From: a virus
Taxonomy: Duplodnaviria; Heunggongvirae; Uroviricota; Caudoviricetes
Length of the DNA stretch: 64,000 nucleotides
Direction: 5' to 3' (one strand)
Virus record (IMG/VR): IMGVR_UViG_2609459800_000001
Shown here: in pieces, positions 43,235-56,209 of the stretch
How the letters are laid out: each line of letters opens with the position of its first letter
How positions within the stretch are numbered: position 1 is the first letter of the stretch
Made by a program: the position numbers and the translations under genes
Notes under the pieces: generated by a model
Told to the model about the DNA's origin: nothing
Seen by the model: the letters and a program-made list of their open reading frames with translations, nothing else
Databases searched by the model: none

Positions 43235-44266
43235 ATGTCTAATTTACTGACCGTACACCAAAATTTGCCTGCATTACCGGTCGATGCAACGAGTGATGAG
43301 GTTCGCAAGAACCTGATGGACATGTTCAGGGATCGCCAGGCGTTTTCTGAGCATACCTGGAAAATGCTTCTGTCCGTTTGCCGGTCGTGGGCGGCATGGT
43401 GCAAGTTGAATAACCGGAAGTGGTTTCCCGCAGAACCTGAAGATGTTCGCGATTATCTTCTATATCTTCAGGCGCGCGGTCTGGCAGTGAAAACTATCCA
43501 GCAACATTTGGGCCAGCTAAATATGCTTCATCGTCGGTCCGGGCTGCCACGACCAAGTGACAGCAATGCTGTTTCACTGGTCATGCGACGGATCCGAAAA
43601 GAAAACGTTGATGCCGGTGAGCGTGCAAAACAGGCGCTGGCGTTCGAACGCACTGATTTCGACCAGGTTCGTTCACTCATGGAAAATAGCGATCGCTGCC
43701 AGGATATACGTAATCTGGCATTTCTGGGGATTGCTTATAACACCCTGTTACGTATAGCCGAAATTTCTAGGATCAGAGTTAAAGATATCTCACGTACTGA
43801 CGGTGGGAGAATGTTAATCCATATTGGCAGAACGAAAACGCTGGTTAGCACCGCTGGTGTAGAGAAGGCACTTAGTCTGGGGGTAACTAAACTGGTTGAG
43901 CGATGGATTTCTGTCTCTGGTGTGGCTGATGATCCGAATAACTTCTTGTTTTGCCGTGTCAGAAAAAATGGTGTTGCCGCGCCATCTGCCACCAGCCAGC
44001 TATCAACTCGCGCCCTGGAAGGGATTTTTGAAGCAACTCACCGATTGATTTACGGGGCTAAGGATGACTCTGGCCAGAGGTACCTGGCCTGGTCTGGACA
44101 CAGTGCCCGTGTCGGAGCCGCGCGAGATATGGCCCGTGCCGGAGTTTCAATACCGGAGATCATGCAAGCTGGTGGCTGGACCAACGTAAATATTGTCATG
44201 AACTATATCCGTAACCTGGATAGTGAAACAGGGGCAATGGTGCGCCTGCTGGAAGATGGCGATTAG
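43235..44266 (+). CDS. cre: Cre tyrosine recombinase
   Basis: ORF track 343 aa MSNLLTVHQNLPALPVDATSDEVRKNLMDMFRDRQAFSEHTWKMLLSVCRSWAAWCKLNNRKWFPAEPEDVRDYLLYLQARGLAVKTIQQHLGQLNMLHRRSGLPRPSDSNAV...; recognised as Cre. Confidence 0.95.
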   Translation: MSNLLTVHQNLPALPVDATSDEVRKNLMDMFRDRQAFSEHTWKMLLSVCRSWAAWCKLNNRKWFPAEPEDVRDYLLYLQARGLAVKTIQQHLGQLNMLHRRSGLPRPSDSNAVSLVMRRIRKENVDAGERAKQALAFERTDFDQVRSLMENSDRCQDIRNLAFLGIAYNTLLRIAEISRIRVKDISRTDGGRMLIHIGRTKTLVSTAGVEKALSLGVTKLVERWISVSGVADDPNNFLFCRVRKNGVAAPSATSQLSTRALEGIFEATHRLIYGAKDDSGQRYLAWSGHSARVGAARDMARAGVSIPEIMQAGGWTNVNIVMNYIRNLDSETGAMVRLLEDGD

Positions 44267-44283
44267 CCATTAACGCGTAAATG

Positions 44284-44300
44284 ATTGCTCTAATTCTTTG
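44284..44300 (+). promoter_or_regulatory. C1 operator-like site
   Basis: ATTGCTCTAATTCTTTG, 13/17 to consensus, upstream of 44317 gene. Confidence 0.45.
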
Positions 44301-44316
44301 ATATTTATGGTGACAT

Positions 44317-44628
44317 ATGAGAAAGGATTTCAACATCGACGGAAAATATGTAGTGCTGTCTGTGAGCACTAATATTCAGTCGCCAGCCGTCATTGTCACT
44401 GTAAAGCTGAGCGATAGAATGCCTGATATTGACTCAATATCCGTTGCGTTCCCTGTCAGAAGTATGCGTAGTGCTGAACATTTCGTGATGAATGCCACCG
44501 AGGAAGAAGCACGGCGCGGTTTTGCTAAAGTAGTGTCTGACTTTGGCGAACTCTTGGATAAGGTTAACAATGTCCTTTCAATCAGTTCAGCAAGGTCCAA
44601 AGCGTTAACAGCTTCCATGATGAAATAA
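44317..44628 (+). CDS. hypothetical protein downstream of cre (cra-like position)
   Basis: ORF track 103 aa. Confidence 0.4.
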   Translation: MRKDFNIDGKYVVLSVSTNIQSPAVIVTVKLSDRMPDIDSISVAFPVRSMRSAEHFVMNATEEEARRGFAKVVSDFGELLDKVNNVLSISSARSKALTASMMK

Positions 44629-44633
44629 AAAAA

Positions 44634-44652
44634 GCCTGGCAAGGAGCCAGGC
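44634..44652 (-). terminator. hairpin with adjacent A/T run (terminator for leftward transcription)
   Basis: GCCTGGC-AAGGA-GCCAGGC preceded on plus strand by AAAAAAA. Confidence 0.45.
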
Positions 44653-44755
44653 TGCACTAAAGACCGGGTTTGTGTTCCGCATCCAATCAATCAGAAAGGA
44701 GTATAGCACATAGATACTAAAGTGAAAAAATGTGACTGAAGATAAACAATATAAC

Positions 44756-44772
44756 ATTGCTCTAATTGATTG
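44756..44772 (+). promoter_or_regulatory. C1 operator-like site followed by TATAAT
   Basis: ATTGCTCTAATTGATTG then TGTTATAATTGAG. Confidence 0.45.
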
Positions 44773-44976
44773 TTATAATTGAGCCGTGGCGTTAGTCAAC
44801 TACGAAGACGTGGCCATTACCTACTTAACCAGTTCCGCCAGGGCAGCAGAGTAGGTTTCATCTCGGATGTACCATGCCTGCATGTTTTCCAGAGAAGCCC
44901 GCGAGGTTCCCGGACAGGACTCTGCCATTGCGATAGATTAAATGCAATAACCTAAAAGCGATAACGTGGTGGAAAA

Positions 44977-45614
44977 ATGTTCATCAGAGCTTATTTAAGG
45001 GCATCAACGGAAGATCAGTTTGCCGATCGGGCAAAAGAGATGCTGGGGCAGTTTGTTCAGGAGCGGGGACATAAAATAGCCAGTTACTACCGGGAGAACA
45101 TAAGCGGTACAAAACTCGACCGCCCGGAACTGGGACGCTTACTGATGGACAGCCACCGCAATGATATTTTACTGGTCGAGCAAATTGACCGCCTGACCCG
45201 TCTGAGTAACAGTGACTGGATTACGCTGAAAAAGCAGATAGAACAACACGAACTGCGGATTGTCGCCTGGATGTATCCACCTCATGGCAGGCGCTGTCAG
45301 ATAAAGACCCTTCGCAGGCTGACCCAATCACCCGCGCCGTGATAACCGCCATCAATAACATGCTTATCGACCTGATGGCCGCGATGTCGCATAAGGACTG
45401 GCTGAGCCGTCGCCAACGGCAACAACAGGGAATTGAACGGGCTCATACGCTGGGTAAATACCGGGGATAACAGGCCGATCAGGAACGGCATCAGAAAGTC
45501 CTGTACTACCGGCAGGTCAAGAAACTAAGTATCCATGAAACGGTAGATGCGACAGGGTACAGTCCTTCACAGATATGCCGCATTCAAGAGAGCCTGAATC
45601 GGAATAAAAAGTAG
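44977..45614 (+). pseudogene. serine recombinase (resolvase) pseudogene, frameshifted and interrupted by a stop
   Basis: N-terminal catalytic domain MFIRAYLRASTEDQ (track ORF 44977..45342); continuation in another frame ...DPITRAVITAINNMLIDLMA...GKYRG, TAA stop, then HTH-like LSIHETVDATGYSPSQICRI. Confidence 0.6.
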
Positions 45615-45713
45615 CCCTGGCGTTAATGGATTACCTTTCCAGGCTAAGCTCATTGCTCCTGTCAGATACGCAGCCCTGCCTGTAATAATACAGACTGGGC
45701 AATGTGTTGCCAC

Positions 45714-46115
45714 TCAGGCTGACAACTGTCGGAGGATATCCGCTGTATTATAATGAGCCCGTTTTTCTATATATTTCCCGTCCTTCAGAGTGATCATAAA
45801 TATCAGAGAAAAGCGCACTTTCCTGCCGCTGGCAGGATGCCCAAGGAATTCACGGGTCTGCACGCCTTCAAAGATAAGATAGCAGGCGACTTTATCGTCT
45901 CTGGCAAAGATTTCGTGGATACGCATTGTAAATCCCGGAAAAGCATCCATATGGCCTTTTTCCTGTACGATAAACTGCTCACTGTTCAGCGGTGTATCCA
46001 CCTGAGAATAGAATTTAAAATCCGGATGGCAGAGGTTTTTCACCTCATCATATTTATTTTCTTCAATCAGACGATAAAACTTTTTAACCGTTTTGATATT
46101 TTCTTCAACAGACAT
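45714..46115 (-). CDS. SnoaL-like / NTF2-fold protein
   Basis: ORF track 45714..46127; start set at MSVEENIKTVKKFY with GAGGTG upstream. Confidence 0.5.
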   Translation of the reverse strand: MSVEENIKTVKKFYRLIEENKYDEVKNLCHPDFKFYSQVDTPLNSEQFIVQEKGHMDAFPGFTMRIHEIFARDDKVACYLIFEGVQTREFLGHPASGRKVRFSLIFMITLKDGKYIEKRAHYNTADILRQLSA

Positions 46116-46123
46116 ATTGCACC

Positions 46124-47113
46124 TCATTTTTCAGTTTCTTTACCTGCCGGAATATTGCCTGCCGGCGTTCCGTTAAATGTTTTTCGCCATTCACTGGGAC
46201 TGACTCCCATCCGCTGCCGGAATATCTGCCGGAAAGTAATGGTGGACTGAAAGCCTGCCAGTTCGGCAACCCGCTCCACTGCAATATCTGTACTTTCCAG
46301 CAGTTCCTGACTCCGCCGGAGACGCTCTGTGGTGATCCACTCCCAGACCGTCATTCCTGTGGCCGAATGAAAATGGCGTGTAAGCGTTCTTCGGCTCATG
46401 GAGGCTAAATGGGCCAGAGTGTCAATATCATGTGGTAATCCCAGATTTGCGGACAGGTATTCCAGCAGCTGGTTTATGCGGTTATCGGACGTACTTTTGG
46501 GAATAAGCAGTTGCCGGTACTGTGCCTGTCCGCCTTCCCGGTAAGGAGGAGCAACCATCCGGCGGGCTATTTGATTAGCCGTATATCTGCCCAGGCGTTG
46601 CCGGATCACATGGAGACAACAGTCCAGTGCTGCGGCTGTACCGGCTGAGGTGATAATCCGCTCGTCCTCAACATAAAGCACGTTCACGTCCAGATGAACC
46701 GCCGGGAAAAGCATCTGGAAATCCCGTTCAGCCTCCCAGTGCGTGGCCGCCCGTTTACCATCCAGCAGACCGGTGTAAGCCAGAACAAAACTCCCCAGGC
46801 ACAGGCCCACCACCTGAGCTCCATTTTTCCAGGCTGCAACCAGGGCACTGAGCAGAGTTTCAGAAGGCCTTTCATGGATGTGTTTCCAGAAAGGAATAAT
46901 AACGATATCGGCCTCTGCCAGTGCATCAAGCCCGTATTCTGCCCTCATCGCCGTACCTTCAGCAGACCAGATAAGCCCGGGCTCTTCCGCACATACCCGG
47001 CGGCTGAAGAGAGCCTTCCCTTCCAGTATCTCCCCGAACAGGATTAGTGGAACGGAGACATGAAATGTACTGAACCCTTCGGTGATCACTATAGCGACAG
47101 TGATGGTGGACAT
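46124..47113 (-). CDS. GlxA-family transcriptional regulator (DJ-1/PfpI domain plus AraC-type HTH)
   Basis: ORF track 329 aa; C-terminal AraC HTH (RRTLTRHFHSATGMTVWEWITTERLRRSQELLESTD). Confidence 0.65.
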   Translation of the reverse strand: MSTITVAIVITEGFSTFHVSVPLILFGEILEGKALFSRRVCAEEPGLIWSAEGTAMRAEYGLDALAEADIVIIPFWKHIHERPSETLLSALVAAWKNGAQVVGLCLGSFVLAYTGLLDGKRAATHWEAERDFQMLFPAVHLDVNVLYVEDERIITSAGTAAALDCCLHVIRQRLGRYTANQIARRMVAPPYREGGQAQYRQLLIPKSTSDNRINQLLEYLSANLGLPHDIDTLAHLASMSRRTLTRHFHSATGMTVWEWITTERLRRSQELLESTDIAVERVAELAGFQSTITFRQIFRQRMGVSPSEWRKTFNGTPAGNIPAGKETEK

Positions 47114-47128
47114 GCCATGGCCTCCGGG

Positions 47129-47905
47129 TTAAATCGTAACTGATTCACCATCAGCAGGAACGGCAACTGACGCCTGGATCTGGTTATCGCGGGCATATTC
47201 CAGCAGTTCCTGACGGGTCAGCAGACAGTGGTTTACGGCCTCCATGTGCGTTGCCACAATCAGTGCCTCTGGTACGATACGATGGGCTTTCAGGACATCT
47301 TCCCTGCCGAAAATAATGGGGCCGAATCCGAGAACATGCGCCCAGCCCGTATTCATAATAACGACGCCAGGATTGAACCGACGTAAATTATCCTCTACAG
47401 CCTTGATCCAGATGGTATCCCCGACCAGATAGAGCGTTTTTTCGGACGGATGCTGGAAGACCACCCCACAGGCATCCCCAAGGATTGCTGCGAGTTGCGG
47501 GTTAGCATAGGCTTCGTCCGAACCATGCTGACAAACGGTTTTAATAAGTGAAATTTCGCCAAATGTGCTTTTGTCAGACAGAATAACAAGGTTGCTGAAG
47601 CCCTGGGAACGCAGGATCTTTTCATCATGTTCATTCTGAACATAAATCAGTTTATCTTTCGGGATGTGCGCAACAGCCGCTTCATCCCAGTGGTCAGGGT
47701 GTGTGTGGGTGACAATAATGGCATCCACATCCAGCAGTACATCAAGGTCAAAAGGCAGCTCAGTCATCGGGATGCGGATATCTGACCGGGCCGTTCCTTC
47801 GAATCCCGGATAGGCTTCTTTTTTCGCAAGCATCGGATCGACAAGAAATTTTTTACCAGCGTAAGAAATGAGTTGTGTGGCGTTACGTACCTGGATGATC
47901 TTCAT
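47129..47905 (-). CDS. MBL-fold metallo-hydrolase
   Basis: ORF track 258 aa; THTHPDHW metal-binding motif. Confidence 0.65.
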   Translation of the reverse strand: MKIIQVRNATQLISYAGKKFLVDPMLAKKEAYPGFEGTARSDIRIPMTELPFDLDVLLDVDAIIVTHTHPDHWDEAAVAHIPKDKLIYVQNEHDEKILRSQGFSNLVILSDKSTFGEISLIKTVCQHGSDEAYANPQLAAILGDACGVVFQHPSEKTLYLVGDTIWIKAVEDNLRRFNPGVVIMNTGWAHVLGFGPIIFGREDVLKAHRIVPEALIVATHMEAVNHCLLTRQELLEYARDNQIQASVAVPADGESVTI

Positions 47906-48120
47906 TTTAGCAAGTCCTGTATTGGTTAATAACCATCAGAGCCATATCATGATGGCCTAATGTGATAATTATGATTAAATCAGGCCTGCCTGCCACTGAA
48001 ATAATGCCATATTTGGATGATATCAGGCCATTCTTCTGGCTCTCAGGTTTCAGGAATATGTCTGCTGAAAGCGGGTACAGATCTGACGCATTGAAGGGAA
48101 GTATCGTCCTTTAAGGCTTA

Positions 48121-48510
48121 TTGATGTCAGCCAGTACAAAAAATCATCTTAACGTACAATATCTTCCGTTTCCCAAACGGAGCCCACCAACGACGGAGGA
48201 ACGGCGCGTCGCCAATGCTCTTGGCGCTCTCCCCTGCATTGCCTGCTATATGCATGGAGTAATATCTAATGAGGTGTCTCTGCACCATATCGCCGGTCGT
48301 ACCGCGCCGGGTTGTCATAAAAAGCAATTGCCACTTTGTAGATGGCACCACCAGCATGCAGCTCCGGCGGAAGTAAGAGAAAAATACCCATGGCTGGTCC
48401 CTGTTCATGCCGATGGTGTGGTTGGAGGCAAGAAAGAATTCACCTTGCTGAACAAGTCAGAGATGGAGTTACTGGCTGACGCCTATGAGATGGCAAATAT
48501 CATGCACTAA
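48121..48510 (+). CDS. HNH-motif protein (possibly Ref-like)
   Basis: ORF track 129 aa; CIACYMHG...HHIAG...CRWHH. Confidence 0.4.
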   Translation: MMSASTKNHLNVQYLPFPKRSPPTTEERRVANALGALPCIACYMHGVISNEVSLHHIAGRTAPGCHKKQLPLCRWHHQHAAPAEVREKYPWLVPVHADGVVGGKKEFTLLNKSEMELLADAYEMANIMH

Positions 48511-48698
48511 TAAATATATTATTTTTAATGATAAATGATTGACAACTGACAAGTGACTTCAGTCAGAATCATCACACGCCCGGTACGGATGGATCCCTTT
48601 TCAAATATTCCATGGACGGCACAGTCTGAGTACCGGGCGCTACCTTCAGTTGTATTGCTAAGCCGCCGCTGGTGGCTTTTCTTTTTTGTAGGGGCGCT

Positions 48699-49340
48699 AT
48701 GGATAAGAAAATATGCGTTGTTTCAATGAGCGTCGGCAAACCGGCGTCAATGACTGCTGCATGGATCAACAATGAGCTGATAATGGCTGAGCGGACCAGC
48801 TACCCTGAACGCCGCCGCGATATGGAACTCCAGCTGCTGCGCGAATTGCGAGAAAAAGAGGAAAAGGGTTTTATCGTGCTGGTGGAAGAGGAAAACAGCT
48901 TTATTACCGGTCAAGTTGGCCAGCGTGTAAGGTTGCGTGATCCCTTCATGAACGGCAGACCGGTACTGATTGAAGCAATGCAGATTTACAAGGAATTGGA
49001 ACGCCAGAAAGCGATCAAGTTACCGCGCAAGGAATCCGGCAAATACATCCTTCACCAAAGCATCTTCGATTCCGAACACGATAAAAAAGGCGATGAATTT
49101 TTCAACATCAACTGGAGCGAAATAACGACAGAGCATGTTCTGACGTTACTATGTTGCTTTGCGACGGAATACAACAACGTTGCCAGCGCCGACTACATCA
49201 GGGCAATGGCTGGAGAAGTTGAAGCCCGCCAGGAACCATCGTTACTAAGTCCACTTATTAACATAATTCTGGGTACCCAGACACTGGAACAAAAAAAAGT
49301 GCCGAAAGGGGTATTAACAGGCAAGCATAATTATTTCTAA
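48699..49340 (+). CDS. hypothetical protein
   Basis: ORF track 48672..49340; start set at Met 10 (MDKKICVVSMSVGK). Confidence 0.4.
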   Translation: MDKKICVVSMSVGKPASMTAAWINNELIMAERTSYPERRRDMELQLLRELREKEEKGFIVLVEEENSFITGQVGQRVRLRDPFMNGRPVLIEAMQIYKELERQKAIKLPRKESGKYILHQSIFDSEHDKKGDEFFNINWSEITTEHVLTLLCCFATEYNNVASADYIRAMAGEVEARQEPSLLSPLINIILGTQTLEQKKVPKGVLTGKHNYF

Positions 49341-49506
49341 TAATTTATAGTGGGGACTTTTGATGGTGTAAAACCCCATGAATTATTATTTTTTAGTTTT
49401 TTGATTCTATTTTTTTTGCATTACCCGTCATAAAAATGAGCTTGCTTACATAATAGAAAATTATTTTATCAACACTATTACAACAAACGATTATCACTGA
49501 TAACAT

Positions 49507-49530
49507 GAGTCCTTTGAAAACAAAGGACTC
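49507..49530 (+). promoter_or_regulatory. perfect 10-bp-arm hairpin 8 nt upstream of GNAT start codon
   Basis: GAGTCCTTTG-AAAA-CAAAGGACTC then ACCATACT-ATG; no obvious SD between. Confidence 0.4.
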
Positions 49531-49538
49531 ACCATACT

Positions 49539-50147
49539 ATGTCTAATACCTCGGCAAATGAAATTGTACCGCACTTACCGCTAATTTTCGAAAATGAAGC
49601 TAATGGGATTCTTCAGGATCTGGCCTATACTCCATCGCTTATGGGGTTGATGATGTTCCCGACAGAAGAGGAGCTGAAAGCAGCGAGAAGCTACATAATT
49701 AACGTTTTTGAAGAGTGTTACCGAGCCGGTCATTTGCGCATTATGGGCTTTACTAATGAAGAAAACTTGTTCGGATACGCCTTAATCTTCGGACATCCAT
49801 CGGGAAATTTTCCGTTGTACTGTCATAAAATATATGTATATGAGCAATATCGTGGTAATGGACTTGGAAGTAATATACTGGCAGAAATACTTGCATTTCC
49901 AAATGAGGTCGCTTTGATTTGCCAGTCTGATTTGGTTCCTTTTTATGAATCAGCCGGAATGCACTTTAAAGGAAATTACACCACTCCATCAGTCGCCAAT
50001 TTCAAAAAAACTCGCGGCATGTATGAGGGGCTTTGTTTGATGAGCACTGAAAAAAATGCAAACTCTAATGGTGTACCTATATTCATGCTGAACGATAACG
50101 ATATTGATAACATCATACAGGCTATCGCATCATCGGCACCACGATAA
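49539..50147 (+). CDS. GNAT-family N-acetyltransferase (AT-rich accessory gene)
   Basis: ORF track 202 aa; acetyl-CoA motif YVYEQYRGNGLGSNIL; AT-rich gene and 200-bp AT-rich upstream region. Confidence 0.55.
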   Translation: MSNTSANEIVPHLPLIFENEANGILQDLAYTPSLMGLMMFPTEEELKAARSYIINVFEECYRAGHLRIMGFTNEENLFGYALIFGHPSGNFPLYCHKIYVYEQYRGNGLGSNILAEILAFPNEVALICQSDLVPFYESAGMHFKGNYTTPSVANFKKTRGMYEGLCLMSTEKNANSNGVPIFMLNDNDIDNIIQAIASSAPR

Positions 50148-50229
50148 TATTAATAATTCATCTCGCCGCAGGAACTACAAACCAGTTGATTGTTTGTGAA
50201 ACGCCCGGTGCAAACCGGGCCAACAAAAC

Positions 50230-50478
50230 TCAATCAGCATTTAGTAGCAGAGCATTATCTATGATGATCTGCTCCCATTCTTCGAATGCCCGGTCGCGGA
50301 CGCCCTGGGGAACGCTGTTTGTTTTGAAATCGACGACCGTCCGCCATTTTCCGTCAGGACGGTACATGCGCAGAGCTTTACTTCCCCCTTCCCTGCGCAC
50401 CTCAACGTTATGCTTGTCAGCAAACTCTTGTAATGCTCGTAGCGTCCCATGCTTTACTGTGTAGTATCGCTTTTTCAA
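50230..50478 (-). CDS. small basic protein (possible lxc/bof-like position)
   Basis: ORF track 82 aa. Confidence 0.35.
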   Translation of the reverse strand: MKKRYYTVKHGTLRALQEFADKHNVEVRREGGSKALRMYRPDGKWRTVVDFKTNSVPQGVRDRAFEEWEQIIIDNALLLNAD

Positions 50479-50915
50479 GTTTTATCTCCAGCCTGTGCTA
50501 AGGCTTCAACTTCCAAATCGTAAGACTCAAACTCATAGTCCTGGTCGTCAACTTCTTCAGGCACTGGCAGTAAATGCCAGGCTGAGTATATCTGACCATT
50601 ATCAAAACGCTCCTGGCTGTAGAGCGTCGCGGCTATGAGTGTTAGCGCCGGGCGGTCATAACGGTAAATTTTGCGAACGTCACGGTCAACGAGACGACCG
50701 AAATTACCATAACCGCGCTCCAGTAATAATTTTTTAATTTCCGGCCAGTATGGACCATAGCTGCGGTACAGGCGGGGATTTTTCAGTAATCGCCCGCGTA
50801 GCCCTGACAGGAAGAAATCAACGTATTCGTCTTCTGTTTTTCCTAACAACGCTGTACGGAGTACCGCCTCAAGATATGTTTTATTCGGTTTTATTGTATC
50901 AGATAGTGTGACCAT
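50475..50915 (-). CDS. hypothetical protein
   Basis: ORF track 146 aa; stop overlaps next gene start. Confidence 0.4.
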   Translation of the reverse strand: MVTLSDTIKPNKTYLEAVLRTALLGKTEDEYVDFFLSGLRGRLLKNPRLYRSYGPYWPEIKKLLLERGYGNFGRLVDRDVRKIYRYDRPALTLIAATLYSQERFDNGQIYSAWHLLPVPEEVDDQDYEFESYDLEVEALAQAGDKT

Positions 50916-50948
50916 ATTATGCGACGCCCGGCGAACCGGGCGCTCCTG

Positions 50949-52316
50949 TTATGCGTATTGTTGGATGACGGCCAGAACGTCCGACACGTTGTGTTTTGTC
51001 TCGATAATCCACCAGTTGCCCGGGAAATCGCTGTTCTTCGCCTTCGCTGGCACCCAGCGAGCGCCGAATTTTTCCTTGATTGCGTCTTTAGCACGGAAAA
51101 GAACGCCTTTCATGCCGGACGCCTCCTGAAGCCCAAATACCTCGCCAGCGGCGAATTTTGGTGCGTACATCATCTTCAGGTCGGCGGTGGATACGCGATA
51201 ATTCAGACCAAGAGACTGAGCTATGCTGGTGGCATCACCCTGTATTGATGATAACTCTTCTTGTTTCTCGTTTCTGGCGGCAATTTCTTCCTCCGTGATG
51301 TTGCCAAGGGCCAGGTTTATCCGATCAGCGTCGGCCTGTTTCTCTTCATCGGTGCGCCCGGCAAGAACCGTGTTAATTCTCTGCAATATCTCCACATGAT
51401 TCTTGCGCATGCTGAGCAATTCCGGCGTAACATCGTTAAGATCCACCAGCCCAAGGATGGCAAGGTCGGAAAACATTGATACCAGGTTGTAGGTCATGCG
51501 ATAGCTGAGTTGGCTATAGGCTGATGGCAACTGCACCGCATCCATTTGATAGGCATCCATAAATTTAGAGCCGTCGTTTACGACATCCGCAATTGCCGGT
51601 GTGATTTTCCCTGTGGTGGCGGCCTCCCTGATTGCTGTTACCCACGATTGAGTCAGCGCGGCGACTGCATGATTCAGATTGGCTTTCCGTTCTGCTGCAA
51701 TGCGCGCGCTTGCTGCGTCCATTGCCTGCTTGATCTCGTCTTTATTGCTGTAAATGCCAATGGGACCAAACTGTGTTGTGGTGATCTCATAATCTGACGC
51801 CCGGAACTCATTGGTACCGAAAATGGCATTGGTGACCTCAAGTTCAGAATCCCCGTTACGAGTAGCCCCCTGACTTGTTTTCTCCGGCATTTTTGCGATC
51901 GCATCCGCTATTTTCTCCTGAATTGCTTCAGGGGATAGCGTATCTCCGTATGACGCGATTACATCGCTATAATTGGATCCAAACAGTTCAGTCAGGAATA
52001 CTTCTGCCAAACGGACCTGGCGGTTATTCCCTTCCGACATCATACCAAGCACCCATTTAGCAATTGACGACTTCAGCGCGCCGTCACGGCGATCCGGGTA
52101 AACCGCATGCTTCAGTGGGTCCGTATAGGTACCAACAAAATCAATGCTATAGCCTGACTCTGTAGTCTGAACGCCGTATGAGTCAGTGATTTTGATCATG
52201 CCGCGCTGCTGGAAACGGTAGAAATCGTCACAGGAAATGATGTCGTTAATCCCGGCGATGGAGACGCCACCACTGATTTTCTGCATAACAGCATCTTCAT
52301 CGGGAGTTACATCCAC
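50949..52316 (-). CDS. hypothetical protein, possible C-terminal portion of a disrupted DarB-like gene
   Basis: ORF track 455 aa; lies downstream (same strand) of the interrupted methyltransferase/helicase ORFs. Confidence 0.3.
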   Translation of the reverse strand: MDVTPDEDAVMQKISGGVSIAGINDIISCDDFYRFQQRGMIKITDSYGVQTTESGYSIDFVGTYTDPLKHAVYPDRRDGALKSSIAKWVLGMMSEGNNRQVRLAEVFLTELFGSNYSDVIASYGDTLSPEAIQEKIADAIAKMPEKTSQGATRNGDSELEVTNAIFGTNEFRASDYEITTTQFGPIGIYSNKDEIKQAMDAASARIAAERKANLNHAVAALTQSWVTAIREAATTGKITPAIADVVNDGSKFMDAYQMDAVQLPSAYSQLSYRMTYNLVSMFSDLAILGLVDLNDVTPELLSMRKNHVEILQRINTVLAGRTDEEKQADADRINLALGNITEEEIAARNEKQEELSSIQGDATSIAQSLGLNYRVSTADLKMMYAPKFAAGEVFGLQEASGMKGVLFRAKDAIKEKFGARWVPAKAKNSDFPGNWWIIETKHNVSDVLAVIQQYA

Positions 52317-53070
52317 CTGTTATCCAGCGTCTTCACATCCCAGTTACCCGATTTGGTGCCTTTGAAGGTAAAGATGATCTCCACGTCTGCGCGCTGGCTG
52401 TCGAAGTCCAGCGACTTAATGCGAACGATATCACCGGCACAATCGTAGTATTGGCCTACACGCCATGAGCGATCGCCGATAACAAGGAACTCACTCGCAT
52501 GGTTAACCAGGTCAGGATCAACATCCAGAATGCCTTTATTTATTGCATCCTCCACCAGTGGGCGCAGGCGTTTGATATCCGTCGCGGCCTTCTGAGTACG
52601 GTTCAATAATTTCTCATAGCGGGAGATGGCTTGAGAGATATTAGCCTTGCGCTGAATGGCGCTTTTCAACGACGCGCGATACTGTGCTAACAACATACGG
52701 TCTGTGTGATGGACACTCCCCCAGCGGGCCTTCCAGTCTGCGTTATCAGCTGCTTTGGCCATTACCGCCTGTTTGAATTTAGCTACCTCGGCGGTGGTCT
52801 TTTCAAATTCCGCTTTGCTTCGCTCTAATTCAGCGGTAAGTACCTCCACATCCTCACCAGCTGCGTGCTGCGCCTTGATGTAGTTCTGAAGGTCGATAGT
52901 AGCCTGTTCTTTCTGGCGAGCGCGTTGCGCGGCTTTCGCCTTATCCATTTGAACCTGCATCATTGCCAGACGTTCACCGTCATCCTTCGCGGTATACATC
53001 TGCATTTCGATCATATCATTGGCGTCGGCGTTCTCCATTTCTGACTTATCTGAACGGAGGATATCGGAGA
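52307..53070 (-). pseudogene. ORF fragment truncated at left inverted repeat (part of disrupted DarB-like gene?)
   Basis: Track ORF 52307..53098 starts on TTG inside the repeat; frame is open right up to the repeat boundary. Confidence 0.35.
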
Positions 53071-53309
53071 TCCTGGGCTTCGTTTGGGAAACGTACAATA
53101 TTGTACGGTTGCGCTATTGCGGTAGGGTGTACTCCAACGCTATACGGTCTTTGGCAGACCTTTAGGGAAATGAGATAAGCTAAATGCGATAAGAGAAAAG
53201 CAATAACTTAAAGGCAATAGCTGATTACGATAAATCAATCAGTTACTTATCAGTATCGATTAAAAAATGCTCCTAACGTACAATAATTTCCGTTTCCCAA
53301 ACCGACCCC
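53071..53309. repeat. left copy of ~240-bp inverted repeat (MITE-like, short terminal inverted repeats)
   Basis: Near-perfect reverse complement of 56729-56968; each copy bounded by GTTTGGGAAACG...CGTTTCCCAAAC. Confidence 0.8.
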
Positions 53310-53320
53310 TAATAGCCGGA

Positions 53321-53500
53321 CTACGGACGCGCAATAATTCGCCCCTGACTTTCCAGCAGTTGGTAAGCATGTCCGACGGTCATGAAGCTCATGCCGCTGC
53401 TGGCGACCTGTTCGCGCAGTGACGGCAGACGATCGCCGGGTCGCCAGACGCCAGAGGCGATCTGTTCGCAAAGTTGTTCAGCCAGACGCTGGTATTTTTT
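53321..53500 (-). pseudogene. N-terminal fragment of a GntR/MocR-family regulator (winged HTH), no start codon, truncated after ~60 codons
   Basis: Minus-strand translation KKYQRLAEQLCEQIASGVWRPGDRLPSLREQVASSGMSFMTVGHAYQLLESQGRIIARP then stop next to the repeat. Confidence 0.5.
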
Positions 53501-53670
53501 ATTCTGGTTTCTCGTCGGTCAATGCAGGTGAGCCTCGCAGTGTATAACAGTGAATAAAATTCACAACGATTTGCAAACTGTTATGGTTAAATATGTCTGT
53601 TCTGTTTCTGCCCCTCATTGCCTCACACGCTTAGAATTGCGCTGAATCAATTTTTAATGCGGAGTCAGGC

Positions 53671-55071
53671 ATGTTTGGTCTTGATGCGTATCACCTGGCA
53701 AGGATCCAGTTCGCCTTTACAGTTTCATTTCACATTATCTTTCCGGCGATCACCATTGGGCTTGCCAGTTATCTGGCGGTGCTGGAAGGCCTTTGGCTAA
53801 AAAGCAAAAATCCGGTCTGGCGCTCGTTGTACCACTTCTGGTCAAAAATATTCGCCGTAAATTTCGGCATGGGCGTGGTTTCCGGTCTGGTGATGGCCTA
53901 TCAGTTCGGCACCAACTGGAGCGGTTTTTCGGAATTCGCAGGCAGTATTACCGGGCCGTTGCTTACCTATGAGGTGCTGACCGCTTTCTTCCTTGAAGCC
54001 GGATTCCTCGGGGTGATGCTGTTTGGCTGGAATAAAGTCGGTCCGGGTTTGCATTTCTTCTCAACCTGCATGGTGGCGCTTGGCACCCTCATTTCCACCT
54101 TCTGGATCCTGGCGTCTAACAGTTGGATGCAAACGCCGCAGGGGTTTGAGATCGTCAACGGCCAGGTTGTGCCCGTGGACTGGTTCGCCGTTATCTTCAA
54201 TCCTTCGTTCCCTTATCGGCTGCTGCATATGTCCGTCGCCGCATTTCTCAGTAGCGCGCTGTTTGTCGGCGCTTCGGCAGCCTGGCATCTGCTGCGCGGC
54301 AACGCAACGCCAGCCATTCGCACGATGTTTTCCATGGCGTTGTGGATGACGCTTATTGTCGCGCCGGTGCAGGCGTTAATCGGCGATATGCATGGGCTGA
54401 ACACCCTGAAACATCAGCCAGCCAAAATCGCCGCGATTGAAGGTCACTGGGAAAACCCGCCGGGTGAGCCCACGCCGCTGCTGCTGTTTGGCTGGCCGGA
54501 TATGGAACAGGAACGCACCCGCTATGGACTGGCGATCCCGGCGCTGGGAAGCCTGATCCTGACGCACAGTCTGGATAAACAGGTTCCGGCGCTAAAAGAA
54601 TTCGCCAAAGAGGATCGCCCTCACTCGACGATCGTGTTCTGGTCGTTTCGCATCATGGCCGGCCTGGGCATGTTAATGATCCTGCTAGGGCTCTGTGCGC
54701 TCTGGCTGCGCTACAGGCAGCGCCTCTACACCTCGCGCCCGTTCCTGCGCTTTGCGCTATGGATGGGACCCTCGGGGCTCATCGCCATTCTCGCGGGCTG
54801 GGTGACCACTGAGGTCGGACGCCAGCCGTGGGTGGTGTACGGTTTACAGCGTACTGCCGACGCGGTGTCGGCCCACGGCGATTTACATATGAGCATTTCG
54901 TTGCTCGCTTTCTTTGTTGTCTACAGCTCAGTCTTTGGCGTCGGCTACAGCTATATGATTCGCCTGATCCGCAAAGGCCCGCTGGAAGATGATTCCGCGC
55001 CGCCGCCGGGCACACCCGCCAGGCCGCTTTCCGCCGCCGTCCTCGATTCTCAACATAAGGCACATCGCTAA
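53671..55071 (+). CDS. cytochrome bd-type ubiquinol oxidase subunit I (short Q-loop, CioA-like)
   Basis: ORF track 466 aa; MFGLDAYHLARIQFAFTVSFHIIFPAITIGL..., GRQPW motif; lacks the long Q-loop insert. Confidence 0.8.
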   Translation: MFGLDAYHLARIQFAFTVSFHIIFPAITIGLASYLAVLEGLWLKSKNPVWRSLYHFWSKIFAVNFGMGVVSGLVMAYQFGTNWSGFSEFAGSITGPLLTYEVLTAFFLEAGFLGVMLFGWNKVGPGLHFFSTCMVALGTLISTFWILASNSWMQTPQGFEIVNGQVVPVDWFAVIFNPSFPYRLLHMSVAAFLSSALFVGASAAWHLLRGNATPAIRTMFSMALWMTLIVAPVQALIGDMHGLNTLKHQPAKIAAIEGHWENPPGEPTPLLLFGWPDMEQERTRYGLAIPALGSLILTHSLDKQVPALKEFAKEDRPHSTIVFWSFRIMAGLGMLMILLGLCALWLRYRQRLYTSRPFLRFALWMGPSGLIAILAGWVTTEVGRQPWVVYGLQRTADAVSAHGDLHMSISLLAFFVVYSSVFGVGYSYMIRLIRKGPLEDDSAPPPGTPARPLSAAVLDSQHKAHR

Positions 55072-56081
55072 TGGGTATTGATTTATCGGTTATCTGGTTT
55101 GTGATCATCGTTTTCGCCACGCTAATGTATATCGTGATGGATGGATTCGATTTGGGTATTGGCATTCTGTTTCCTGTCACACGAAACGCAGAGGATCGTG
55201 ATGTGATGGTCAATAGCGTCGCGCCGGTGTGGGACGGTAATGAAACCTGGCTGGTGCTGGGCGGCGCGGGGCTGTTTGGGGCTTTCCCGATGGCCTATGC
55301 GGTTATTATCGATGCGCTGACCATTCCGTTGACGCTGATGCTGATCGGACTGATTTTTCGCGGCGTGGCCTTCGAGTTTCGCTTCAAGGCCACGCCAGCC
55401 CACCGCCCATTTTGGGACCATGCTTTTCTCGGCGGGTCGATTCTGGCTACCTTCGCCCAAGGGATCGTGGTTGGCGCAGTGATCAACGGTTTCCCGGTGA
55501 CCGGTCGCAGCTACAGCGGCGGGCCGTTCGACTGGTTAACCCCCTTCACTCTGTTCTGTGGCGTCGGACTGGTCGTTGCCTATGCGCTCTTAGGCGCAAC
55601 CTGGCTGGTGATGAAAAGCGAAAATCCGCTTCAGGATAAAATGCGCAGCGTCGCGAAAAAACTGCTGCTGGCCCTGCTGTTGTCAATTGCGATAATCAGC
55701 CTCTGGACACCGTTAGCGCATCCGGCGATCGCCGACCGTTGGTTTACGCTTCCCAACCTGGGCTATCTGCTGCCGGTTCCGGTGCTGGTGATCGCGTTCA
55801 GCGTCTGGTTATGGCGCACACTGGGTCGTCCGGAAAACCACACGTTTCCGTTTGTGCTGACGCTCGGGCTAATCTTCCTTGGTTTCAGCGGCCTGGGCAT
55901 CAGTATCTGGCCGCACATTATTCCGCCTTCGGTTACCCTCTGGCAGGCAGCCGCCCCCGCCCAGAGTCAGGGGTTTATGCTGGTCGGTGCGCTGCTCATC
56001 ATTCCGGTGATTTTGGTGTACACCTTCTGGAGTTACTATGTGTTTCGCGGCAAAGTGCAACATGGCGAGGGGTATCACTGA
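55071..56081 (+). CDS. cytochrome bd-type ubiquinol oxidase subunit II
   Basis: ORF track 336 aa polytopic membrane protein; ATG overlaps subunit I stop. Confidence 0.8.
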   Translation: MGIDLSVIWFVIIVFATLMYIVMDGFDLGIGILFPVTRNAEDRDVMVNSVAPVWDGNETWLVLGGAGLFGAFPMAYAVIIDALTIPLTLMLIGLIFRGVAFEFRFKATPAHRPFWDHAFLGGSILATFAQGIVVGAVINGFPVTGRSYSGGPFDWLTPFTLFCGVGLVVAYALLGATWLVMKSENPLQDKMRSVAKKLLLALLLSIAIISLWTPLAHPAIADRWFTLPNLGYLLPVPVLVIAFSVWLWRTLGRPENHTFPFVLTLGLIFLGFSGLGISIWPHIIPPSVTLWQAAAPAQSQGFMLVGALLIIPVILVYTFWSYYVFRGKVQHGEGYH

Positions 56082-56209
56082 TGCAACATTCTCTCTGGAA
56101 ACGCCTGATGTGGCTGGTCATCCTTTGGGGCGGCAGCGTGTTGGCGCTGGCGGCGGTGGGCATGTTTTTTCGCCTGCTCATGACTGCGGCGGGGTTTAAA
56201 GCGCATTAA
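56081..56209 (+). CDS. CydX-like small membrane subunit (42 aa)
   Basis: ATG overlaps subunit II stop (TGATG); MQHSLWKRLMWLVILWGGSVLALAAVGMFFRLLMTAAGFKAH; below ORF-track cutoff as an independent ORF. Confidence 0.5.
   Translation: MQHSLWKRLMWLVILWGGSVLALAAVGMFFRLLMTAAGFKAH

Follow-up and report, generated by a model that had tools for sequence, protein, structure and literature searches.

Examination of a 64,000-nucleotide stretch of caudoviral DNA (IMG/VR record IMGVR_UViG_2609459800_000001), here called the window, by gene mapping and homology searches reveals that it is a P1-like phage-plasmid in which a variable cargo cassette, holding a single open reading frame (ORF) for a 202-residue GNAT-family N-acetyltransferase, lies between the convergent genes mat and lxc (Table 1). 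BLAST comparisons with P1, SJ46, RCS47, JL22, MH422554 and two further plasmids show that the homology of the backbone ends at 49338-49345 and restarts at 50227-50232, borders that coincide with the stop codons of mat (49340) and lxc (50230-50232). Since homology breaks exactly at these two stop codons, the cassette sits precisely at the position occupied in P1 by the res and mod genes. An earlier note on this DNA, made from its letters alone, had described a stand-alone, AT-rich gene for a GNAT of 202 residues, preceded by about 200 bp of AT-rich DNA, at the res/mod site of P1; both the BLAST borders and the GC content (40.4% in the coding sequence and 28.3% in the upstream spacer, against 48.6% in the whole window) bear out this description. 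As that note had presumed, P1 itself does not carry the same gene, and no phage-collection record has it either (tblastn). The flanking genes had been read less accurately. The P1 annotation gives the order cra-cre-c8-ref-mat-res-mod-lxc-ulx-darB, in which the gene after cre is c8 and not cra; the supposed HNH-motif gene is a 5'-truncated ref (PF16786), and the supposedly unknown gene of 213 aa is mat, a conserved backbone gene.

Table 1. Features in and around the mat-lxc cassette (positions are those of the window)
Feature	Position	Strand	Remarks
cre	43235-44266	+	
c8	44317-44628	+	
Foreign insertion	~44.9-48.1 kb		
Resolvase fragment in foreign insertion	44977-45342		
SnoaL-like 'ester cyclase' in foreign insertion	45714-46127	-	
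AraC/GlxA-type regulator in foreign insertion	46124-47113	-	
MBL-fold hydrolase in foreign insertion	47129-47905	-	
ref remnant, 5'-truncated	48121-48510	+	RecA-dependent nuclease; PF16786, E=1.3e-50
mat	48699-49340	+	Maturation control; left backbone flank; 93-97% identity to mat of P1, SJ46 and RCS47; phrog_1837
Variable cargo cassette	49341-50229		889 bp, 38.1% GC; one ORF
AT-rich spacer upstream of GNAT gene	49341-49538	+	198 bp
CTGATAACATGAG, window version of palindrome CTGATAACATCAG	49497-49509	+	From aligned upstream regions on unrelated mobile elements
Perfect inverted repeat	49506-49531	+	11-bp stem, 100% complementary, 4-nt loop; ends 7 nt before ATG
GNAT-family N-acetyltransferase gene	49539-50147	+	202 aa, ATG start; Pfam GNAT matches
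GC-rich hairpin GCCCGG-TGCAAA-CCGGGC	50203-50220		Between convergent GNAT gene and lxc; read from sequence
lxc	50230-50478	-	Modulator of C1 repressor; right backbone flank; 97-98% identity to P1 and SJ46
ulx	50475-50915	-	Matches phrog_1629 'Ulx-like anti-restriction'
darB remnant	from 50949	-	

Fold, conserved motifs and charge of the GNAT protein

Pfam searches with the protein recovered Acetyltransf_10 (PF13673; 27.3 bits against a cutoff of 23.6) and Acetyltransf_1 (PF00583; 25.6 against 20.7), with PF13508 falling just under its cutoff of 27 at 25.3 bits. GNAT domains alone were detected in the protein, and its terminal extensions matched no antitoxin or other Pfam domain. It adopts the α/β fold of the GNATs, with a layout comprising an N-terminal three-helix region (residues 4-62), the GNAT core (66-169) and a C-terminal P-x-F-x-L-N-D-x-D segment with a helix (180-199). 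In the AlphaFold (AF2) model (pLDDT 88, pTM 0.84) the three N-terminal helices replace the usual strand β1, and the C-terminal helix spans residues 186-199. Motif A (R/Q-x-x-G-x-G/A), the binding motif for the acetyl-CoA pyrophosphate, is present as R105-G-N-G-L-G110, and R105, G108 and G110 are invariant or nearly so among 42 family members; YCHK, E102 and F135-Y136 are likewise conserved in the family. A dN/dS of 0.10-0.15 against seven homologues reveals purifying selection. In light of the R105-x-x-G-x-G motif, the conservation of YCHK, E102 and F135-Y136 and this dN/dS, the enzyme looks active. The same dN/dS, together with the pLDDT of the model and a solved structure of an identical sequence, indicates that the ORF is a real gene.

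All members of the family have conserved N- and C-terminal extensions, which are among its best-conserved parts. The conserved elements include an N-terminal helix, I-F-E-x-E-A-x-G-I-L-x-D-L, followed by G-Y-A, Y-(C/L)-H-K-I-x-V, motif A in the form Y-R-G-x-G-x-G-S, F-Y-E-x-x-G and the C-terminal P-x-F-x-L-N-D-x-D segment with its helix. The protein is acidic, with an isoelectric point (pI) of 4.95, 12 lysines and arginines against 21 aspartates and glutamates, and a net charge of about -9; acidity is a property of most of the family (pI about 4.5-5.5, median about 5).

The solved crystal structure is PDB entry 9S30, whose chain 9s30_A is 100% identical to the protein over all 202 residues, carries a 30-residue tag in addition and is named just 'GNAT family N-acetyltransferase'. 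This deposition indicates that the protein is already under study and shows that it can be expressed and purified. Its release is probably recent, since the entry is absent from a Foldseek copy of the PDB ending 2026-04-08 and present in a 2026 sequence copy. Full-text literature searches, including those by 9S30 and WP_000072647, found no publication on the protein. It is annotated in RefSeq and forms PHROG 10454 ('unknown function'); the epithet 'undescribed', given to its function earlier, has to be qualified accordingly.

After 9S30, the best profile matches to solved proteins are AANAT (E=9e-8), NATA1/GNAT8 (1e-6), SSAT2 (4e-6) and PaiA. Such small-amine N-acetyltransferases, namely AANAT (serotonin N-acetyltransferase), SSAT1/2, SpeG, PaiA and the plant NATA1/GNAT8, are also among the top structural matches. 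Both the AANAT group and the window protein have an LVPFY...G segment and a histidine on strand β4, which aligns with His122 of AANAT. The profile matches to amine acetyltransferases (E-values of 1e-7 to 1e-5) cover core residues 76-146 only, and TM-scores over the query do not exceed 0.52.

Distribution, genomic contexts and upstream sequences

The identical cassette (at least 97% identity over its full length) is found in 19 PLSDB plasmids from Escherichia coli, E. fergusonii and Salmonella Pomona. Among complete E. coli genomes it is present in 12 of 5,426, always on a plasmid and never on the chromosome, and a second allele, with a protein 84% identical and a different leader, occurs in 7 further complete genomes and in E. 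albertii. One pig-farm P1-like plasmid, NZ_KX518745.1, matched the query 49300-50230 over its first 525 nt only (99.4% identity); as the match ends early, the GNAT gene is cut there after about 95 codons, which suggests that the cassette is dispensable. Homologues of the protein form 23 clusters at 90% identity, and the family amounts to about 57 clusters (50% identity) at E ≤ 1e-10 among 1.84 billion representative proteins; most of these have 186-217 aa and match end to end, the shorter ones matching the profile in part only. Close relatives are encoded in 5 of 100,044 species-representative genomes and in 14 IMG/VR contigs. The protein belongs to a rare, compact and architecturally distinct GNAT subfamily.

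Examination of gene neighborhoods reveals that the relatives are lone genes on mobile elements, often adjoining restriction or NACHT genes: 1) in a Raoultella lambdoid prophage, transcribed against its neighbors, between the replication genes and the ref/methylase/Q (nin/Q) region; 2) on an IncFII plasmid of Klebsiella, downstream of repA, with McrBC about 5 kb away; 3) on a phage-plasmid of Serratia that encodes a C1 repressor of the P7 type; 4) on an integrative and conjugative element (ICE) of Serratia aquatilis, adjoining a C5-methylase and a DUF4928 protein, with an Mrr-type nuclease upstream; 5) on an Enterobacter mori island, adjoining two NACHT proteins of more than 1100 aa each; 6) in an IS3-flanked islet of S. 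marcescens; 7) on a Pseudomonas island that also carries DUF4942 and HipBA. When all ORFs within 2.5 kb were compared with one another across nine contexts, no partner protein proved common to distinct contexts, which argues that the GNAT works as one gene. None of the contexts examined has a ribbon-helix-helix (RHH)/DUF1778 gene beside the family member. The spacer 49341-49538 holds no ORF of at least 40 aa and none conserved elsewhere, and no conserved small ORF was found in 49341-49538 or 50148-50229.

The sole element common to distinct contexts of the family is a non-coding leader of about 100 nt with the palindrome CTGATAACATCAG, which is found upstream of the enterobacterial homologues. 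About 110 nt upstream of the homologues in the loci L001, L009, L013, L039 and L041 the leader reads ...TTCCTGGCAGGCTAAATATTTGTTCTTCACCCCATA...GCTGCTAACATCAGGCTTTAAAAAATAACGAAGG..., and it spans a prophage, an IncFII plasmid, a phage-plasmid, an ICE and a chromosomal island. Because it is conserved with its palindrome on unrelated elements, a promoter or operator seems to move along with the gene. The window allele retains part of the leader only, including CTGATAACATGAG, which may be a -10 region or an operator. The palindrome itself was rejected as a LexA box, its spacing being CTG-N7-CAG and not CTG-N10-CAG, and a sigma-54 promoter in the TGGCAGG leader of the homologues was dismissed since no TTGC element occurs at the correct spacing. 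An apparent conserved ORF upstream of the homologues has stops in all frames and no start codon, and is a non-coding leader. A 95-aa gene of the Serratia phage-plasmid (L013, 7721-8008) overlaps the GNAT start and has no ORF counterpart elsewhere; as it lies on the conserved non-coding leader, it is probably spurious.

In the window, the spacer presumably holds the GNAT gene's own promoter and leader. A consensus scan yielded one sigma-70-like site, a weak match of 9/12 at 49360-49389, and we therefore do not claim a promoter. The inverted repeat just upstream of the start codon is specific to the window allele and absent from the leaders of the homologues. The RNA of 49480-49570 is predicted to fold at -20 kcal/mol (z = -3.8), and the hairpin may dampen translation, since it contains the sole Shine-Dalgarno-like AAGGA. 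The hairpin at the other end of the cassette is probably a terminator, and a similar one lies downstream of lxc in RCS47, SJ46 and CP157096. No terminator was found between mat and the GNAT gene.

The mat-lxc gap and its surroundings

Comparison of the mat-lxc interval across P1-like elements shows that the gap is a true site of cassette exchange for variable cargo, the other occupants of which are mostly known or candidate defence genes: 1) the EcoP1I res/mod genes in P1 (about 6.3 kb); 2) a RelA/SpoT gene, that of CapRel, in SJ46, pEC974-2, pLH85-a-A and pTB202; 3) a short SIR2 protein (274 aa) and a 137-aa ORF in p12579_1 (L049, 5108-6411); 4) a DUF2971 protein in pPK8277-98kb; 5) an EAL-domain protein and a divergent helix-turn-helix (HTH) protein in pJIE250_3 (L051, 5109-6755); 6) a 316-aa protein (gp7) in JL22; 7) an unannotated 346-aa ORF on the minus strand in MH422554 (L017, 1755-2795). 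In RCS47 the site is empty (about 40 bp). Searches against PADLOC models matched the SIR2 protein to PDC-S25/ThsA/Dsr, the DUF2971 protein to PDC-S31, CapRel to PDC-S33 and JL22 gp7 to PDC-S34. Thus, the placement of the gene at a variable defence locus, as asserted in the earlier note, holds, with restriction-modification, CapRel, SIR2, DUF2971 and JL22 gp7 among the occupants. The GNAT cassette is commonly found in the slot, and CapRel is the most frequent occupant in P1-like plasmids of E. coli. Location in defence hotspots or islands is also seen in the relatives found beside NACHT genes, a methyltransferase with DUF4928 and Mrr, and McrBC. The EAL and HTH proteins of pJIE250_3, neither of which matches PADLOC, could be further uncatalogued cargo, such as a cyclic di-GMP phosphodiesterase.

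CapRel(SJ46), a fused toxSAS toxin-antitoxin from the Salmonella phage SJ46, is an experimentally proven anti-phage defence (PMC9712102), and a survey preprint (10.1101/2025.09.12.675607) names the defences borne by P1-like elements as type III restriction-modification, dGTPase, PrrC and CapRel. Like the GNAT gene, that of CapRel(SJ46) is a single ORF on the same strand of the same slot with its own upstream spacer. However, CapRel is a RelA/SpoT pyrophosphokinase (an N-terminal toxSAS) with a recognizable C-terminal antitoxin/sensor domain, of which the GNAT has none, and it matches a PADLOC model, whereas the GNAT matches none. EcoP1I res/mod shares with the GNAT gene the occupancy of the slot, and is defence cargo, but consists of two genes (6.3 kb) on the opposite strand, targets DNA and shows no homology to it. 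The mat gene accompanies every cassette type, the empty site included, which argues that it is not the partner of the GNAT; this disposes of the idea, raised earlier, that the GNAT might cooperate with the upstream 213-aa gene.

A second variable slot lies between ref and mat; in several P1-like plasmids it holds a DUF4145-domain protein (L045, 4495-5244; L019, 1318-2040), which is absent from the window and for which no PADLOC match was found. Farther upstream in the window, a foreign block (44900-48180) between c8 and ref eliminates the promoter/operator of ref along with the gene's first 229 nt: homology to P1 begins at P1 position 2306, and ref starts in P1 at 2077. In p12579_1, which has the same insertion, no ref coding sequence is annotated at the corresponding place. 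A single place covering at least 80% of the query interval 44300-53600 was found in 32 PLSDB records. On the other side, the darB remnant (the 50949-56200 region) is split into ORFs of 455 and 263 aa in different frames and ends near 53.1 kb, where it is cut off by an inserted segment with the operon of a cytochrome bd-type oxidase: cydA (53671-55071), cydB (55071-56081) and a DUF2474 gene. The darB/cyd junction is also present in the E. coli plasmid NZ_CP049847.1 (99.3% identity), and the cyd block by itself in many plasmids.

A candidate defence enzyme and its alternatives

We propose that the GNAT gene is a self-contained, single-gene cargo cassette (a 'moron') of the P1-like prophage-plasmid, and, at not quite an even chance, that its product serves the lysogen as a single-gene, prophage-borne factor of anti-phage (superinfection) defence. 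In favor of this are the exact replacement of EcoP1I res/mod by the cassette in a slot taken elsewhere mostly by defence genes, the location of relatives beside defence genes on other mobile elements, the lack of a conserved neighboring ORF and the features that make the enzyme look active. The enzyme would be expressed during plasmid maintenance from an AT-rich promoter region of its own and, acting alone, would use acetyl-CoA to acetylate an amine of some positively charged target that the incoming phage requires. The acidic pI of the family and the matches to amine-acetyltransferase profiles fit a cationic acceptor. This might be a lysine or the N-terminus of a protein, or a polyamine-like small molecule, tRNA being an unlikely target; binding of the acceptor, or regulation, is the role proposed for the conserved N-terminal helices and for the C-terminal PxFxLNDxD segment and the helix after it. 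The closest functional precedent is provided by the GNAT-domain integron cassettes Brc113 and BrcP, which confer phage resistance as single genes (bioRxiv 10.1101/2024.07.02.601719). Unlike the window protein, these are short ordinary GNATs in attC cassettes, and for Brc113 a tblastn comparison of the GNAT with the gcu113 sequence, taken from a machine-read supplement text with frameshifts, gave no match at E ≤ 10. It is conceivable, if rather unlikely, that the protein founds a GNAT-based family of single-polypeptide anti-phage immunity, in which the extensions would recognize a cationic target derived from or required by the phage and N-acetylation would neutralize it by direct chemical inactivation, as distinct from abortive infection.

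Several observations weigh against a defence function. None of the defence hidden Markov models of PADLOC-DB v2.0.0 matched the GNAT at E ≤ 0.1. Amine acetyltransferases resemble the protein in the cofactor-binding core (residues 76-146) alone, a similarity that hence says little about the acceptor. The argument from the slot is one of guilt by association, as the slot also takes the EAL and HTH pair, which has no defence signature, and P1-like elements also acquire cargo unrelated to defence, of which the AraC/MBL and cyd insertions of the window are examples. Moreover, the neighboring ulx and darB are anti-restriction functions, so that the region also hosts counter-defence. There is but a single weak promoter match, and a strong hairpin covers the ribosome-binding site. 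The gene is a credible, cheaply testable defence candidate and not a demonstrated system.

Other readings of the same cassette have to be weighed alongside. The enzyme might be ordinary lysogenic-conversion cargo that acetylates a toxic cationic small molecule, for instance an antibiotic resembling aminoglycosides or streptothricin, a microcin or peptide-nucleotide, or a toxic analogue of an amino acid, and benefits the host regardless of phages. This we consider unlikely. The GNAT is stand-alone, apparently non-toxic and in no need of a partner, its relatives also ride on an ICE and on an IncFII plasmid that is conjugative, an acidic protein is well matched to a cationic drug, and its structural and profile neighbors include the tabtoxin-resistance protein, the streptothricin, nourseothricin and glycylthricin acetyltransferases, AAC(2') and AAC(6')-Ii, though with generic scores; in addition, phage-plasmids often bear resistance genes (10.1101/2022.06.24.497495). 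However, no curated NCBIfam or antimicrobial-resistance model scored above its cutoff, the best being PRK10314 (E=0.05, 13.4 bits against 171), with ArsN1a also far below (E=0.099, 12.4 bits against 170), and the AMRFinder predictions of PLSDB flag no resistance gene for the identical copy. The searches of NCBIfam and PADLOC models matched the GNAT to no known aminoglycoside, housekeeping or other curated acetyltransferase, which agrees with the reading of the earlier note. The extreme rarity of the family (5 of 100,044 species genomes) and its residence in a phage moron slot and defence islands, with no transposon or integron association, further disfavor a resistance gene. It is less probable still that the GNAT acts in counter-defence or host takeover, aiding the establishment or lytic growth of the element by disabling a host immune protein or modifying a host regulator. 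AcrVA5, a GNAT anti-CRISPR that acetylates Cas12a, is the model for such a role, but it has 92 residues as against 202, acts in the anti-defence direction and has no specific sequence similarity to the window protein, the similarity being no better than to about 50 other GNATs. The GNAT gene does adjoin the anti-restriction genes ulx and darB, and since mat has a late promoter in P1, the GNAT gene runs in the same direction and no terminator was found between them, late read-through transcription is possible; with darB truncated in the window, other anti-defence cargo could be advantageous. On the other hand, the other occupants of this exact slot are defence and not anti-defence genes, and the homologues on chromosomal islands and an IncFII plasmid serve no phage.

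The earlier note had raised a toxin or addiction function beside an anti-phage one, and had suggested a look for a small unannotated antitoxin ORF nearby. In one form of this reading the GNAT would be a tRNA-acetylating toxin of the TacT, AtaT, KacT or ItaT type with such an antitoxin; alternatively, it could be a fused toxin-antitoxin in the style of CapRel, with an N- or C-terminal extension that auto-inhibits the enzyme until a phage protein binds. TacT, AtaT, KacT and ItaT each have an RHH/DUF1778 antitoxin gene as partner and use basic surfaces to bind tRNA. The window protein shares with them the GNAT fold and carriage on mobile elements, but differs in its acidity, its termini and the absence of a partner gene, and it is no nearer in similarity to the tRNA-acetylating toxins than to other GNATs. 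As gauged by proxy from its pI and net charge, it lacks a basic tRNA-binding surface, its composition being the opposite of what such a surface needs. No RHH/DUF1778 or other conserved small ORF adjoins any family member, the small ORFs of the cassette are not conserved, and in nine contexts no partner ORF was found, only the non-coding leader being conserved. Together, the absence of an antitoxin, the acidity and the want of preferential clade similarity disfavor the tRNA-acetylating or addiction reading. In favor of a toxin are the presence of a fused toxin-antitoxin, CapRel, in the same slot, the conserved non-GNAT extensions at both ends, the concentration in the 171-179 loop and the C-terminus of the positions at which the two P1-type alleles differ, and the hairpin over the ribosome-binding site, which suggests that expression is kept low. 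Yet the extensions match no antitoxin or other Pfam domain, and, being highly conserved, unlike the variable sensor domain of CapRel (PMC9712102), they do not look like a sensor domain. We therefore regard a toxin of either kind as very improbable.

Were the GNAT an anti-phage enzyme, as we tentatively favor, acetylation of proteins or metabolites would be added to the effector chemistries known from prophage defence hotspots. Should the gene prove to protect lysogens, it would represent a compact 0.9-kb module of acetylation-based defence, a chemistry absent from the current defence catalogues, on P1-like phage-plasmids that move among E. coli, Salmonella and E. fergusonii of humans and livestock; if it is instead a small-molecule detoxifier, it would be a new resistance determinant on a transducing element. 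A defence role would also mean that the mat-lxc gap, a precisely bounded slot with CapRel, restriction-modification and SIR2 among its occupants, can be mined for new immunity genes, as the P2 and P4 hotspots were.

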